A stretch of DNA of 64,000 nucleotides, taken from positions 18,799 through 82,798 of the forward strand of contig JAKBBN010000001.1 in assembly GCA_021808485.1 (NCBI GenBank), in the 5' to 3' direction. Position numbers: made by a program. This DNA is from Planctomycetota bacterium. Lineage in GTDB: Bacteria; Planctomycetota; Phycisphaerae; WQYP01. Within the stretch, counting starts at the first letter, position 1; every line of letters starts with the position of its first letter. This document shows, in pieces, positions 24,001 to 33,000 of the stretch.

Positions 24001-27000
24001 GACTTCGGAAAATCTTCGCATAATCTCCGCCCGCCGCTCCGCCGCCATCTGTTCCACCACTCCCCGCAGGTGATACACCTCGGGTTCCGCCAGCGGCACC
24101 AGTTGCCGGCAGCAAGCGCCGCATCCCGCCCGGCAGGAAATCTTTTTCCCCTCCGCAGTAACCTGATCAACGGCCGCGGACACCACGATATCCGCCAGTT
24201 CTCCAGCGGCGGGCACCATGTCACTGGGATAAACCCGGCCTTTGGGCACGCGAATTTTTACCGGCCCCGATGGCGGATACAGCCGCCCATGTATCCGCAG
24301 TTGAACAAATGCCGTATCCGTGTCGCCCATGTCTTGTCCTTTGGTTGGCCATCACCATACCACACCCCTTGCGCCCCACCAACCACCGCCGCCATTTACC
24401 CCGCCGACGACCATGACTTTACCCCATTTAATCCCCGGCTTGATTCTTGCGCAATAACGGTGAAAATAGGCTCCGGGCTTACCCGGCTGCCGGTGCCATC
24501 TGCCGGACCCCGCTGTCGCCCCGCTGCACACAGGCTCCCTCTGCGTGCGGCAGCGTCTCTTCCAACGCCGCTTACCGCGTGCCGGACGGCGTTATTCTTC
24601 AGCGGCACGGCGCGGTGAAGCGCCGGGCCAAGTTTTGTCCGACCGGCATGGCCGGCCCCCATGCCGGGTTGCCTGCACGGTACGATTGTGGAACGTCAAC
24701 TATGGCTGCATCGGAACTTTCTCCCTGCCTGCCCCCCGGCTTTCAAGTCTGCCCGCTTCAACCGCAGACGGATGCCGCCGTGCGCATCTGCCTGGTGGTC
24801 CGCACCAAGGCCGACCCCGCCAACGGCTGGTTTGTCGCCCTCGGTGAATCTTTCGCCGCCCGCGGTTTTCTTGGCTGCCTGACGGATCAACTCGGCAACG
24901 TCCTGTACTGGTTGCAAATCACCGTTCAAATTACCGATGCCGCGCAAACCGGACCCGAAGCCATCGGCGATTTCTGGACCAATCATCGTCTTGATCAGCG
25001 CTGGCAGGCGGATTGCGACTTGGCCACCGGCCATCTTGCCCTCCGCGGCGCATGGGAATCCCAGCATCCGCTTCCGCTGTTCTTTGATTCGGCAACCCGG
25101 ACTCTTGCGCCTCTTACGGACGTCGAATCCGGCGCCGTATGGCGGCTGTGTACCGATGAAGCTGTTTTAGCCGCCGCGGGCCTGCCGCCTTATTCCACCT
25201 CCACGTGCCGGTATTTGTACGTAACACCGCCGGATGATCACCACCGGTTCCTCGCGGTTCAGGATGATGCCCCCCGGAATGAATCCACCGCACTCCTGCG
25301 GGATATTGCTGCCGCCGCCGGTCGCAAACCGTGGAACCCCGCCGCCGGCCTGATGCGCATCCGGCGATGGAGCAGCCTTTCCACGGATTCACTTCTGGAC
25401 ATTCTCGCCGGACTGCCTTATTCCGGCGTACCCGGCGGCAAACAGCCCATGGATTTTGACCGCCTCGCGGATATCCTTAAAGATACCGGTGAATCCTTGT
25501 CCGCGGGCACCGTCTTTCTCGGACGGCACGGCCGGCATGGCCGCATCATTGAAAGCCTTCATCTTAAACTCAAATTCCTCGCCGATGCCTTGGACTGCGT
25601 CCACCGCTTTACCCGCAAAGCCCGGCGGCCGCTGCTCAACCTGCAAACCGCCTGTTTTCAGCCCCATCTGGCCGCGCCATCGGCGGCACTGCCTTTCCTA
25701 TGGACGGCCGGCCTTGATCTGGTCGATTTCGGCCGGGCTGCTACGGTCAATATTCCCGATTCCGACGAAATATTTTTTACCGACGCCGGCCCCGCGGCCC
25801 CCAACGCCTATAAACCCCTGTTCGACGCCCGTCAGCTTATCGCCGAATCCGCCTCGCTTCGCCTTCGCTCTCTCACCGCGGAATCCGATGGGGGCTGCCT
25901 CATTGACGGCACACTTTCCGCAATTGAAAGCATCAAATCACAGCCGGCGGACCTTGTCTGCCTGCGCGTGGCTCTGGCGGATCAGCGGATTCTCCTTACT
26001 GGATTTGCCGATGCGCATACGGCGCTGGCCGCCGGCGAGCTGCGCTTCCGCTCCAATCGCTTTGCCGCGCCCCCGGACATTCTTGCCGCGCTCAAAACCG
26101 CCGAGGGCACAACCCTGCGGCCGGTCCGCATGCAGTGCCTTCCGCGCATGGACAGTGCGTACGATCTTTACGCACTCGCCGTCCTGGGCTTGCGGGCTTT
26201 GGTCGTGCATCCCAAAAATCCGCTGCCTGTCGCGGTGGATGTCCTGCGCAGCCTCATCGCCCGGCTTTCCGCGGACGCCGCATCCGATCGCCCCCTGGCG
26301 CAGCGCATCGGCGAATTGCTGGAAACCGACTCGCGATGGTCGGCGTCGTTGGGCCCCGCAAACGTTTTCCCGCTCACGGATGACGATTCCGCCGGCGATC
26401 TGATTCCACGCAATCTCTGGCTCCAGATTCTTGAATTGCTGGTGCGCATGGTGCCCGGCGGGCCGGAGAGCTTCTGTGCCTCTTACGGTATAATGCCCCC
26501 TGCCGGAATGGCCGGGCTGTTTGAACCAGCCGCCGATACGCTCCAGCGGCTTTTAATTCAGACCCGGAGCCTGATCGTGATCGACTGGCGGGTAAACCGC
26601 GAAGTTCACGCCGTTATCCGCCGATTTCAGTTGGGAGTTTAATCGTTCTCCCGGCGTCACATTCCGCCGGATTCTCGAAAGGATCACACCCATGAAAAAT
26701 TTAATCCGCAAACTGACCGGGCCGCTGCTCGCCGCGGCGATGTTCGCCGGACTTGCCGGTTGTTCCCACGGCCCCATTGACCGGAACATGAGCCTGATGC
26801 TGGGACAAAGCCTTCGCGCCGGCCAAACTTCCACCAGCACCATTGCCGTGGACTTGGTGGGTGTCAACGCCACCGATTACCAGCGCTGGCGCAACTATTC
26901 CATGACTGCCTATTTTTCCGCCGGTGACCTGCTCCGTGCCGGCGCCGACAAAATTACCCTGAACTTCACGCCCGGCTCCACCGCCACCATCGAATTCTCC

Positions 27001-30000: not shown

Positions 30001-33000
30001 TCCGCCGCCGCACTTATCCATTTGGAAAGCAGCCTGCCCGCCCGCCTTAATTCCCTTCTCACCGCTGATACTCAACTGACCGCGAATCGTCGCCGGGAAT
30101 TGCTGGCTGCCCTCAACCTGCATTACCGCCTGCGCTGGCAGGCCCGCCTTAATGCCGCCGCCGGCGCCGCCCAAATTACCCCCGTTTTGACCTCTGCTCC
30201 GGCCTACAGTGTGTCGCTGCCGCCGGCGCCGGCTCTCGCCGAGCTTGCCGGCCTCACCGCGCTAAAGCCGGCCGCACAATTCAATCTGCTCATGTGGCAG
30301 TTTTTACGGCAGGCCCAAGGCGTAAAAGCCGCTGCCGCCGCCCGCGACCTTGCCGGTCGTATGGAGAATATTTTGACCCGCACGGCAAACCGGCCCGGCT
30401 GGACCGCAATCACTTCCGGAAAGCGATTCGTCGGGCTCACCGGCGCACTGCAGGGAATCATCAAGGCCAATCCCGCCCAGGCCCGGCAACCTTCCGGACC
30501 GGCGCTTGCCGGCTGGACCCGCGTGAAATCAGCCGATCATTCCCGCATTTTCACCAGTCCATCCGGCCGCCATAAACTTACCTTTGTGCTTTTATCCCCT
30601 CCGGACGGCAAGCGATTTTATCTCTGCACAACGGAACTGGACGTGGGAACATTTATTTCCGTTTTGAATTCCAGCGCGAATCTTCTCCATCATCCGTCCA
30701 ATTCGTTTTACAACCTTGTCAAGCCCAATGAAAACTATCTTGGCCCGCACACCTGGGTGTATAACGAAAATGTCGGCCAGGTTGCGCCGGCGACTTCCTG
30801 GTTCACCAACACCAATCAAATTTACAACGCCCCCCGCTACAGCCCTGCCCTTCGCGCGCCGAATGGCAAACGCCTCAGCTCCGCCGCCGGCGGCCCACCC
30901 CAAACCAGCGACCCGGTCACTTATCTGCCCCCGCAGGCCGCCGTCTATGTCGCCGCCCTGCTCGGCTGCACACTGCCCACCACCGCCCAATGGCAATATG
31001 CCTGGAGTCAAAATCGAAAAAGCCCCGATCCCCATTTCCCCGGTCGCACACTGTCCGCCTATGTGCGGTATCTGCGGCAGGTAAATTCCGCCCAGGATGC
31101 CCGCCTGCCCACACCAAGATATTGGGATGTTTATGGCTATTCCGCCCCGGCATTGGCCGGCAGCGTCAATCAATTCGGCGCCTCGCAAAACCCCTCGCTC
31201 TGGTTTATGCCGGTAACCGGCGCCGGCCATTCGCCCACATTCATTCATCTGGCGGGCAACGCCGCCGAATGGGTATTCAACGCCCCGTCCGCCTTTCACA
31301 AGGCCTTTGAAACCTGGATCAAAACCCCGACCGCACTGAACAGCGCCGCCGTCGACAAGCTGTTTGCGCCTGCCGCGCTTAAAAGTGTGTTTGTCATCGG
31401 CGGGTCCTGCCTGTCGCCATTGGGAAAAATTCAACCTCAAACGCCGGTTGCGATCAACTGGAGTTTACGGCGGACAAGCCGCGGATTTGCCGATGTCGGC
31501 GTCCGCCTGGCGTATCAGCCGCGTGTCCTTACCCCGCAGGAGCGCCTCGCGGCCTTAACCCGTCACAACTGGTACTATTGATTGCCCGCACGCAATCGCC
31601 CCGGAAGAATACCGGCAGGCGATAACGCCGCCGTGCATGGCTCCACGGACCGCCGCCCGCGGACGAAAAATCTGCCGCCGCCCCCGCCTCACGCATGAAT
31701 CAACAGCGGTATATCCTGCGGCAATTGATCCGCCACGGATGTCAGTGTGTCGCCATGCATGGCCCGCAGCAGCGAGCCGCGCCGTGACACGCCCATCAAA
31801 AGCGCGTTAACGCCGTACGTGGCGGCAAAATCCAGAATACTCCACGCCACATCCGGTGATACCACGTAGATCGGCACCATCGGCACCTCCAGCTTTTTGC
31901 ACTGCTCGTCCGCGGCGCGCAGCGCCGCAATTGCTTCCGGATCTTCGCTTAAACTCGGCCCCTGGTCTTCGGCAAGGAATGTGAGGTTCAGCGGACGCAC
32001 AAATATCACAAACAATATCGACCCGGTCTGCTGGGCATATTTGGCGGCAAATTCCAGCAGCCGCGGCGAACCACGCGTGGCCACCATCACCTTCGGCAGC
32101 GCCATGTCCAGTTCTCTGGCCGGCGTGCCTATGGCCAGCCCGGCTGCCGCCGCCTTCGCGGGAGCCTCAATCTCGGCTGCCGACGCGATCAACGAACGAA
32201 CCAAGCCGCGGCAATAATAGGCGGCCGCGAGGCTCGCTATCGCAAAACCTGTGGCCCCCGCAAAACACCAACCCGCGTACACCGGCTGATGGGCCACAAA
32301 CGCCATGCCCAGCCGCCCCAGCCCCACCGCCGCCAGAATGCCCGCCGCACTGCTTCCCGCCAGCGTCCATGCCCGCCCGCGCACCGGCAATTCGGGAAAC
32401 TGCTTGGTATAAAACCGCGCCAGCAATCCCGCGCCCAGCACGCTTATCGCAAAAATCAGCGCTTCATGCTTTTGCACCGCCAAGGTAATTTCAATGCCGC
32501 CCATCAACAGTGCGATACACGCGATGAAAATCCGTTCCCACACTTTGATCGGCAGTTTCCGGTTCGCCGCCGCACTGCCGAGATTGATCGTAATGGCTCC
32601 CACCACGCCGATGGCGTACAGATCTCCCAGCGTGGAAAGACTTTGGAAAATGCTCAATATCAGTACCGGCACCACCACCGCCGGTATCAACGCCAGCCAT
32701 GGCACGCCGAACATATTCAGGCGGCTTAGGAATTTGGGCAGCTCATTGTCACGGGACATCGTATATTGCACGCTCATCATCGCGCCAATCGCCGTGTTCA
32801 CCGCCGAAATCAGCAGCAAACCGAATACAATGCCGCAAATCCACCCGAACACCTTGCCGACATAATCCGTCGCCATTACGCGCATCACCGCGTTTTGAAT
32901 GTTATCTTCCCTCTTGTAGTTCGTATCCATGCTCTGCACTTTGGCCCGCAGGGTCGGATACGCCCGCCAGTCCGGGTGCGCCTGTTCATACGCACTGACC

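Follow-up and report, generated by a model that had tools for sequence, protein, structure and literature searches.

Do the three genes that stand beside a type VI secretion system (T6SS) gene cluster in this genome belong to the secretion machine, and if so, what might they contribute to it? In the window, by which we mean the whole 64-kb stretch of DNA analysed, these genes (ORF1, ORF2 and ORF3, hereafter the trio) share the + strand and are separated by 49 bp (ORF1-ORF2) and 48 bp (ORF2-ORF3), with the coordinates and short gaps that a preliminary description had given. They are genuine genes: public contigs carry gene calls for proteins identical to the trio ORFs, ORF1 has relatives in 1304 cluster representatives at E<=1e-3 (50% identity clusters), and the close family of ORF3 is conserved end to end, with a mean column identity of 73% (11 sequences). 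An alternative TTG start of ORF1 at 24447 is possible and is used neither by homologues nor by the public gene calls. The trio, its domains and its surroundings are arranged as follows.

5059..23504, + strand: partial T6SS cluster, the context of the trio (Pfam matches)
23575-24330, - strand: CxxCxxCC/YkgJ-like gene, divergent from ORF1
24331..24701, no strand: 371-bp intergenic region, presumed trio promoter in this genome
24702-26642, + strand: ORF1, 646 aa counted from ATG; cytoplasmic product, no TM, no signal peptide
25530..25733, + strand: ORF1 residues 277-344, long helix (putative alphaE), RRPLLNLQ and LVDFG (secondary structure)
25824..26147, + strand: putatively placed beta-barrel insert of ORF1, residues ~375-482 (strand pattern)
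26692-27225, + strand: ORF2, 177-aa lipoprotein, divergent TssJ
27274-31581, + strand: ORF3, 1435 aa, GTG start
27274..28005, + strand: Hanks-type pseudokinase domain, ORF3 residues 1-244 (family profile against PDB)
28006..28080, + strand: transmembrane helix, ORF3 residues 245-269 (Kyte-Doolittle peak 2.39)
28081..30558, + strand: Ala/Leu-rich region, ORF3 residues 270-1095 (composition), periplasmic as predicted from topology
30559..31581, + strand: FGE-sulfatase (SUMF1)-like domain, ORF3 residues 1096-1435 (PF03781, profile against PDB)

The first part of the window cluster encodes TssB, TssC, Hcp, TagJ/ImpE, TssE, TssF, TssG, ClpV and VgrG, and the last part a DUF2169+pentapeptide protein, a pentapeptide protein, a DUF3540 protein and a DUF4150 PAAR-like protein; TssA, TssK, TssL and TssM were not found anywhere in the 64-kb window. 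The YkgJ-like gene stands between the PAAR gene and the trio and, as had been described, faces away from ORF1 across 371 bp. Since TssK, TssL and TssM are missing from the 64 kb and the YkgJ-like gene intervenes, co-transcription of the trio with the T6SS operon seems unlikely here from the gene arrangement. A promoter common to the trio had also been proposed; a scan for sigma-70-like sites, which may not suit the phylum, finds none in the 371-bp region and leaves that proposal unsupported. In the relatives L010 and L012-L014, the equivalent gap is ~120 bp; there the PAAR-like gene precedes ORF1, in the same orientation.

The trio had been placed just downstream of the T6SS. The upstream cluster is genuine, but most relatives carry the trio inside the cluster. 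Of the 52 species loci in Planctomycetota, Verrucomicrobiota and Kiritimatiellae whose downstream sequence reaches far enough to be informative, 44 retain the order ORF1, lipoprotein (~175 aa), giant (1300-2100 aa), and this order holds across classes and phyla while ORF1 identity is 33-68%. At least one T6SS core gene lies within the ~22 kb covered in 39 of the 47 complete-trio loci, in three lineages of the PVC group (Planctomycetota, Verrucomicrobiota and relatives), a conserved synteny that bears out the link to the T6SS; six of the eight loci with no such gene nearby are short contigs. The usual position is between VgrG/PAAR and TssK-TssL-TssM: in 21 loci a ~310-aa gene comes immediately after the trio, then TssK and TssL, with TssM next where the locus extends far enough. 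The trio is not an obligate unit, since several Verrucomicrobiota loci and one Planctomycetota locus have ORF1 among unrelated neighbours without ORF2 or the giant, and a Kiritimatiellae cluster has ORF1, ORF2 (TssJ), TssK and TssL without the giant. The gene table of locus L001 holds no FHA or PP2C family, the sole FHA gene observed (in L006) is without relatives elsewhere among the loci, and the relatives' clusters examined contain no TagS/TagT-like ABC genes.

The window sequences of ORF1, ORF2 and ORF3, taken alone, have zero matches in Pfam or NCBIfam, so that the domain assignments are confirmed only via family profiles or a structure model. ORF2 has a signal peptide with a LAGC lipobox (residues 1-24, nt 26692-26763), whose Cys24 is invariant among 30 homologues, and a transthyretin-like beta-sandwich (residues ~30-170) that resembles solved TssJ structures more than other folds; lipobox and fold agree with the earlier view of a TssJ-like lipoprotein. 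Identity to TssJ (SciN / VasD / Lip) is just 9-13%, neither ORF2 nor its 30 homologues match the curated TssJ models (Pfam T6SS-SciN, NCBIfam), and the ORF2 family profile against PDB sequences gives noise only and recovers no TssJ chain. TssL and TssM are co-encoded with ORF2 in the relatives' T6SS clusters; neither is within the 64 kb of the window. Most relatives carry the trio inside the cluster, immediately ahead of a ~310-aa gene and TssK-TssL-TssM. ORF2 is most likely the core TssJ of the T6SS itself, rather than an accessory.

For ORF3, the layout given in the preliminary description, a pseudokinase with a degenerate catalytic loop, a single TM, a long Ala/Leu-rich region and an FGE-sulfatase fold, is recovered. 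Domain searches miss the kinase and FGE-sulfatase domains in the window proteins and detect them in relatives, where PF03781 matches 25 of 28 (best 1.9e-21) and Pfam Pkinase weakly matches 2 of 28. The family profile of the N terminus finds StkP (1.1e-9), PknE (1.4e-6) and PknA (7e-6) in the PDB, with the family's HGNLK aligned on the kinase HRDLK; it reaches 502 distinct PDB sequences at E<=10, and nearly all of the 60 matches listed are protein kinases. The catalytic-loop remnant reads RSHGNLRAEY (residues 130-139, nt 27661-27690), and four key residues are lost in the window protein (beta3 Lys to Leu, HRD Asp to Asn, loop Asn to Tyr, DFG Asp to Leu). Among 33 giants, 31 have Asn in place of the HRD catalytic Asp, 26 keep beta3 Lys and 27 the DFG-like Asp, and one giant (locus L046) retains HGD; given these retained residues, nucleotide binding, or else residual or atypical catalysis, may occur in family members elsewhere. 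A hydrophobic segment occupies the position of the TM helix in 41 of 43 giants. The region that follows (~830 aa; 17% Ala, 13% Leu) has no detectable homologue and no PDB or Pfam match, and its length differs among relatives (entire giants, 1387-2104 aa). A periplasmic vWA domain finds no match in ORF3 or its relatives.

The C-terminal family profile matches human SUMF1 in the PDB (2aft, 2.2e-12; 1y1e, 3e-11), as well as EgtB and others, and the FGE domains of two relatives weakly match the NCBIfam models of T9SS PorK/GldK and GldJ. The catalytic Cys pair is missing from the ORF3 family, which has ALSPP after GGS and no conserved Cys there. Presumably COG1262, the family of TagR, corresponds to the SUMF1/FGE family. 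The sensor had been considered different from that of the PpkA system, a claim that probably does not hold, as TagR, which activates PpkA from the periplasm, would have an FGE-type fold too. A review lists TagR as COG1262, a periplasmic activator upstream of PpkA (PMC13584744), and the TagR-PpkA pathway is also covered elsewhere (PMC10482370). By virtue of this shared fold class, ORF3 looks like a PpkA-TagR fusion.

ORF1 belongs to a PVC-wide, uncharacterised family with a candidate kinase-like fold that lacks canonical catalytic motifs. In the putative mapping of kinase subdomains, RRPLLNLQ takes the place of HRDLKxxN. The family conservation pattern is E.lHLKL...qrP.LnL...SF...LPfLWTa...L.d.G, in which VAIK Lys, HRD and DFG are not found; on the same mapping, qrP.LnL would replace HRDLKxxN, and D.G is a partial counterpart of DFG. 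The beta-barrel insert would lie between the DFG-like motif and an alphaF-like helix (DLYALAVL, residue 488 onward) and gives weak ~100-residue Foldseek matches to Upf1 and ferredoxin-reductase-type beta-barrels. Numerous invariant charged residues of ORF1 have no assigned role.

The folds, motif losses, topology and conserved gene order described above are what the analysis shows. Together, they suggest, with a probability of roughly 0.55, that the trio forms an integral part of PVC-group T6SSs, a module which contributes its own TssJ and a PpkA+TagR-like fusion and acts by scaffolding rather than phosphotransfer; the trio probably helps to build or trigger the T6SS without phosphorylation. 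In the following scheme, the interactions, the ligand and the kind and course of the signal are all proposed from folds and gene order. ORF2 would be the outer-membrane lipoprotein that completes the TssJ-TssL-TssM membrane complex, putatively by binding TssM, with the TssL and TssM genes presumably elsewhere in this genome. ORF3 would be a bitopic inner-membrane protein that unites both halves of the Pseudomonas PpkA/TagR switch in one chain, from a cytoplasmic Hanks-kinase fold through one TM and a periplasmic stalk to a non-catalytic FGE/TagR-type head close to the cell wall or the outer membrane. A signal, or anchoring, would be passed on through conformation and protein-protein contact rather than phosphotransfer, given the family-wide loss of the catalytic Asp, the further loss of the ATP-binding Lys and the metal-binding Asp in the window protein and the lack of conserved FHA or PP2C genes nearby. 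ORF1, the likely cytoplasmic partner of ORF3, would link it to baseplate and membrane-complex assembly (TssK-L-M). We tentatively extend this, with considerable doubt, to a distinct PVC T6SS subtype in which TssJ-L-M, the periplasm-spanning pseudokinase-FGE giant and ORF1 work together, with a phosphorylation-independent, double-pseudokinase switch licensing baseplate docking. If true, the ORF3 fusion would be Rosetta-stone evidence for direct TagR-PpkA contact in Pseudomonas.

The trio may have a sensing or regulatory role, to which a purely structural role is the alternative. ORF3, perhaps with ORF1, could be a fixed subunit of an enlarged PVC membrane complex that senses no signal: the stalk would bridge the envelope, the FGE head would form or dock to a ring near the outer membrane or to the cell wall, as in PorK/GldK, and the pseudokinase domain would be a cytoplasmic docking platform, as in YukC/EssB. 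This is possible, although we consider it somewhat unlikely. It agrees with the near-obligate linkage of the giant to TssJ and TssK-L-M, with kinase and FGE domains that are both catalytically dead by motif, with the two matches to PorK/GldK and GldJ models, and with a stalk whose length varies as that of a spacer would. Furthermore, there is a precedent in YukC, a membrane pseudokinase and central secretion-system component in T7SSb according to a preprint (bioRxiv 10.1101/2020.05.09.085852). The Kiritimatiellae cluster without a giant implies, however, that at least some such systems can do without it, and the nearest functional analogues of kinase and FGE folds linked to a T6SS, PpkA and TagR, are regulators.

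Phospho-signalling, in which an atypically active ORF1, or ORF3 in those relatives that keep Lys and Asp (and, once, HGD), would phosphorylate a T6SS component, for instance TssL, TssK or the ~310-aa protein, in a true threonine-phosphorylation pathway made of unusual parts, is improbable. Most giants do keep beta3 Lys and the DFG-like Asp, that of L046 has HGD, the invariant charged residues of ORF1 are numerous, and Agrobacterium PpkA phosphorylates TssL directly, as one report states (PMC3953482). Against this, the catalytic Asp is Asn in nearly all giants, the window ORF3 lacks all four key residues and yet is conserved over its full length in its clade, ORF1 has no HRD-type Asp, and an FHA or PP2C partner is not conserved nearby. 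Finally, it is very improbable that the trio is a coincidental neighbour, either a general envelope-signalling or sulfatase-maturation set or VgrG/PAAR-linked effector-immunity cargo: proteins that combine Pkinase with FGE-sulfatase domains are common beyond the T6SS, the trio comes after VgrG-PAAR genes, a frequent cargo site, and ORF1 alone adjoins unrelated genes in a few loci, but synteny largely refutes this reading. Different classes and phyla share the gene order, unlike that of fast-changing cargo, ORF2 has a TssJ fold, ORF3 is membrane-anchored and its FGE domain, lacking the Cys pair, is unlikely to mature sulfatases.

Experiments on the T6SSs of Planctomycetota, Verrucomicrobiota and Kiritimatiellae seem not to have been reported, and the literature searched holds no published description of the trio module. 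As an integral T6SS module, the trio would supply the 'missing' TssJ of PVC T6SSs, undetected by standard models, and define two large unannotated T6SS-tied families, ORF1 alone exceeding 1300 clusters at 50% identity; without them, tools that annotate genomes or search for T6SSs would count too few PVC systems or score them wrongly. It also suggests a counterpart, fused and catalytically dead, of PpkA/TagR, the best-known post-translational switch of the T6SS; such a counterpart would inform both TagR-PpkA communication and pseudokinase scaffolding in secretion machines.

A close comparison is the TagQRST-PpkA-Fha1-PppA threonine phosphorylation pathway of the P. aeruginosa H1-T6SS. In both, the T6SS genes encode a bitopic protein of the inner membrane whose cytoplasmic part has a Hanks-kinase fold, a periplasmic module of the FGE family (COG1262), as in TagR, and an accompanying lipoprotein. 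The H1-T6SS cluster also includes TagJ/ImpE, as does the cluster of the window trio. Unlike PpkA, the ORF3 kinase lacks the catalytic Asp (Asn in 31/33) and a vWA domain; its FGE domain is fused to the kinase via the ~830-aa stalk, whereas TagR is a free periplasmic protein. A conserved FHA substrate or PP2C phosphatase was not found near the trio, TagS/TagT are not seen, and there is an additional cytoplasmic candidate kinase-fold protein, ORF1. ORF2 differs from TagQ in its TssJ fold, and from TssJ (SciN / VasD / Lip) in its low identity and in being missed by Pfam and NCBIfam.

Bacterial receptor kinases of Pkinase-TM-FGE-sulfatase architecture are common and functionally uncharacterised. 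ORF3 has the same order of kinase fold, one TM and extracytoplasmic FGE domain but is a pseudokinase, its spacer is very long, and its synteny with the T6SS is strict. YukC/EssB, likened to ORF3 by architecture, belongs to an unrelated secretion system and phylum and has a different extracytoplasmic domain, but is likewise a bitopic membrane pseudokinase central to a secretion machine, and one that we interpret as a scaffold, not an enzyme. In PorK/GldK and GldJ of type IX secretion/gliding, which are lipoproteins of a different machine rather than a TM fusion as in ORF3, a non-catalytic FGE fold forms part of the periplasmic structure of a secretion machine, which may also hold for ORF3.

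Three same-strand genes occupy 24702-31581, exactly where the preliminary description had placed them, with gaps of 49 bp between ORF1 and ORF2 and 48 bp between ORF2 and ORF3. Upstream lies a partial T6SS cluster, recognized through Pfam matches.

5059-23504, partial T6SS cluster: TssB, TssC, Hcp, TagJ/ImpE, TssE, TssF, TssG, ClpV, VgrG, DUF2169+pentapeptide, pentapeptide, DUF3540 and DUF4150 PAAR-like genes
15009-23504, + strand, spike gene set within this cluster, comprising its last five genes from VgrG to the DUF4150 PAAR-like gene
23575-24330, − strand, CxxCxxCC (YkgJ-like) gene
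24702-26642, + strand, ORF1, 646 aa
26692-27225, + strand, ORF2, 177 aa
27274-31581, + strand, ORF3, 1435 aa, GTG start

The YkgJ-like gene, between the PAAR-like gene and ORF1, is on the opposite strand and divergent from the trio, as had been described, with 371 bp separating it from ORF1. At several loci of ORF1 relatives (L010 and L012-L014), ORF1 comes next after the PAAR-like gene, on the same strand and ~120 bp away, so the YkgJ-like gene appears to have been inserted and to interrupt the operon. The spike gene set corresponds to the 'Class III Tvp' spike-assembly accessory system reported in 2026 (PMC13373197), and its genes are spike accessories, not effectors. TssA, TssJ, TssK, TssL and TssM were not detectable anywhere in the 64-kb window. 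Public contigs, GCA_027429615.1 among them, carry the same called proteins, and megablast of the trio against plasmids gave no match.

Searched alone, the window sequences of ORF1, ORF2 and ORF3 match nothing in Pfam or NCBIfam, even at E≤1, and the domain names proposed for them therefore had to be tested through relatives. Close relatives of ORF3 are few (only 11 among 5.8 billion clusters, at 48-59% identity over the full length). ORF1 is far more widespread, with 38 relatives found by word-indexed search and 1304 representatives at E≤1e-3 by exhaustive HMMER, the best 150 of which are nearly all full length (~650 aa). The ORF1 profile finds 261 relatives in species-representative genomes; the titles of the best 80 belong nearly all to PVC lineages (Phycisphaerae, Pirellulales, Planctomycetaceae, Brocadiaceae, Verrucomicrobiota and Kiritimatiellae) or to unclassified bacteria, and the nearest named relatives are MAGs of Phycisphaerales and other Planctomycetota. 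One ORF2 homolog (P0065) comes from Phycisphaeraceae bacterium D3-23, whose genome resembles that of an isolate.

Placing the window T6SS proteins together with TssK, TssL and TssM from locus L001 on 88 loci of ORF1 relatives, and listing the ORFs 3′ of ORF1, reveals a recurrent gene order: ClpV, VgrG, PAAR and others, ORF1, a ~175-aa lipoprotein, a counterpart of ORF3 (hereafter giant; 1387-2104 aa), a ~310-aa gene, TssK, TssL and TssM. Lipoprotein and giant are both present in 44 of the 52 loci that have at least 6.5 kb 3′ of ORF1. The association of the trio with T6SS was borne out across relatives, since 39 of 47 complete-trio loci include one or more T6SS core genes within the available sequence, and short contigs account for six of the remaining eight. 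The genes immediately after the trio at 21 loci are the ~310-aa gene, TssK and TssL, joined by TssM where the locus reaches far enough, and the precomputed gene tables of L001 and L006 have the same arrangement. TssK, TssL and TssM are absent from the window yet adjoin the trio in relatives, and the cluster therefore seems to have been split in the window's lineage. These relatives also dispose of the trio as a substitute for missing TssJ, TssK, TssL, TssM and TssA, of which the TssJ part alone stands. The ~310-aa gene, which has no Pfam family and precedes TssK (L001:21229-22161, L006:17496-18443, L008:13011-13976 and others), is conserved in the PVC clusters examined, and a second gene of unassigned family (314 aa) adjoins TssM in L001; both are candidates for further T6SS parts, such as a TssA-like protein.

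The arrangement varies at its edges. In Kiritimatiellae, ORF1 and ORF2 are followed by the ~310-aa gene, TssK and TssL without a giant. ORF1 stands alone in several Verrucomicrobiota loci and one Planctomycetota locus, with neighbors that are sometimes unrelated; homologs without lipoprotein or giant beside them occur at L007, next to a prepilin-type gene and a T2SS-E ATPase gene, and at L055, L072, L082 and L087, among unrelated metabolic genes. We regard the trio finding as solid and broadly conserved.

The module ends at 31581, because the next gene is a convergent, riboswitch-preceded amino acid permease/Usp gene.

31689-33812, − strand, AA_permease_2+Usp gene, convergent with ORF3
33866-34084, − strand, c-di-AMP (ydaO-type) riboswitch (Rfam RF00379, 55 bits, E 5e-10), directly upstream of the permease gene
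34296-35096, + strand, sigma-70-family gene with regions 2 and 4, just past the riboswitch
35111-35857, + strand, sigma-70-family gene with region 2 only, adjoining the first

The riboswitch and permease gene, an arrangement that resembles that of the KimA/YdaO potassium transporters, are unrelated to T6SS. Arabinofuranosidase and GH35 genes come after the two sigma-70-family genes. GC skew at ~22000-44000 is −0.15 to −0.24, against ~−0.05 on the left flank and ~0 on the right, at nearly constant G+C content.

For ORF3, the preliminary description had proposed a kinase-like fold with a degenerate catalytic loop, a single TM helix, a long Ala/Leu-rich region and a C-terminal FGE-sulfatase (SUMF1) fold, and all four are upheld. 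A PDB profile search with the close ORF3 family gave only noise. The profile built from the first ~245 residues of 33 giants matches Hanks-type kinases in the PDB (StkP, 1.1e-9; PknE, 1.4e-6; PknA, 7e-6), with the family motif HGNLKPxN aligned on HRDLKPxN, and Pfam Pkinase is matched weakly by 2 of 28 giants. Across the 33 giants, the β3 Lys is Lys in 26 and Arg in five, the HRD Asp is Asn in 31, the catalytic-loop Asn is kept in 29, and the DFG Asp is kept in 27, with an invariant Pro after it; the corresponding residues of the window ORF3 are Leu, Asn, Tyr and Leu, so that all four key kinase residues are lost. Its clade is nevertheless conserved along the full length, and by these sequence criteria the N terminus is a maintained pseudokinase. 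A Phycisphaerae MAG (SMAG_U14779) encodes the exceptional giant (L046:12668-17137), in which HGDIKPAN retains the catalytic-loop Asp alongside the β3 Lys and a DFG-like Asp, and which may have kept kinase activity; all other giants but one have HGN.

A single hydrophobic helix (residues 245-269) is present in 41 of 43 giants. With the kinase fold placed in the cytoplasm, ~1165 residues would be periplasmic. Residues 270-1095 contain 17% Ala and 13% Leu and yielded no detectable homolog. Pfam FGE-sulfatase is matched by 25 of 28 giants (best 1.9e-21), and the C-terminal profile matches human SUMF1/FGE (2.2e-12) as well as bacterial FGEs and EgtB. True FGEs carry a Cys pair after the GGS motif; the giant family lacks it in the C-terminal alignment, and the domain is therefore most likely a binding module, not an enzyme. 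NCBIfam matches of the giants are to SenA and EgtB and, once each, to PorK/GldK and GldJ, which are structural lipoproteins of T9SS.

ORF2 is most likely a new, divergent TssJ within that known family. Its profile found only noise among PDB sequences. The effector-immunity reading of the trio is rejected on account of its deep conservation and the TssJ fold of ORF2. ORF1 probably has a kinase-like fold. Secondary structure and conservation suggest a long αE helix (residues 277-307), RRPLLNLQ where HRDLKxxN would stand, LVDFG (340-344), a ~100-residue β-barrel insertion (~375-482), and DLYALAVL, from residue 488, as αF. We grade the fold no higher because a Foldseek search of the PDB yielded no kinase and nothing significant, profile-profile alignment (hhalign) found no relation to the ORF3 kinase domain, and the PDB profile search was noise, with actin-fragmin kinase (E 0.26) as the sole sequence hint. 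The best Foldseek matches (E 4e-3), to Upf1 and ferredoxin-reductase-type β-barrels, probably reflect the inserted barrel of the model.

Together, the folds, lost motifs, TM helix and gene order lead us to propose that the trio is a PVC-type T6SS module. ORF2 would complete the membrane complex. ORF3 would extend from its cytoplasmic portion along a long periplasmic stalk as far as an FGE head that binds a ligand close to the outer membrane or cell wall, and its dead kinase domain, probably with the cytoplasmic, kinase-shaped ORF1, would relay position or state through protein contacts, licensing assembly of the baseplate and membrane complex. We infer function, and with it all contacts, the ligand and any effect on firing, from folds and gene order. 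The main rival, with a real though lesser chance of being correct, treats ORF3 and ORF1 as fixed subunits or anchors with a structural role instead of as a switch; the folds and synteny fit it as well, and the matches to T9SS structural lipoproteins sit easily with it. Real but atypical phospho-signaling is unlikely: the L046 giant speaks for it, the residues lost from the window ORF3 against it. Chance neighbors or cargo, for which solitary ORF1 loci might be cited, is very improbable given the recurrent gene order. Under either the relay or the anchoring reading, ORF3, as a pseudokinase-TM-stalk-FGE protein, and the ORF1 family would represent a new form of T6SS post-translational control or anchoring; our literature search found no published description of the trio module or of PVC T6SS parts.

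COG1262 is the SUMF1/FGE family. The putative link that we draw between TagR and FGE combines this family identity with the COG1262 entry in a review (PMC13584744); we found no literature text linking TagR with sulfatase or formylglycine. In the P. aeruginosa H1-T6SS, the bitopic kinase PpkA works downstream of periplasmic TagR (COG1262), of TagST and of TagQ, an outer-membrane lipoprotein, and its phosphorylation of Fha1 triggers assembly (PMC13584744, PMC10482370). ORF3 joins PpkA-like and TagR-like folds in one chain. The likeness to PpkA suggested earlier thus extends to the membrane kinase-fold architecture but not to the catalytic residues or the vWA domain, which ORF3 lacks, nor to a conserved FHA or PP2C gene, absent from the trio clusters examined; tblastn with the FHA protein of L006 and the kinase of L007 found no copies at other loci. 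ORF3 would therefore be a PpkA/TagR module in architecture, and, judged by its residues, neither an active Hanks kinase nor a true FGE. The trio provides a testable way into two questions, the action of TagR on PpkA and the role of pseudokinases in secretion systems. In T9SS, PorK/GldK uses the FGE fold non-catalytically. A precedent for a non-catalytic kinase fold is the T7SSb membrane pseudokinase YukC/EssB, reported in a preprint (bioRxiv 10.1101/2020.05.09.085852). Like these two systems, the trio would place non-catalytic kinase and FGE folds in a secretion machine.
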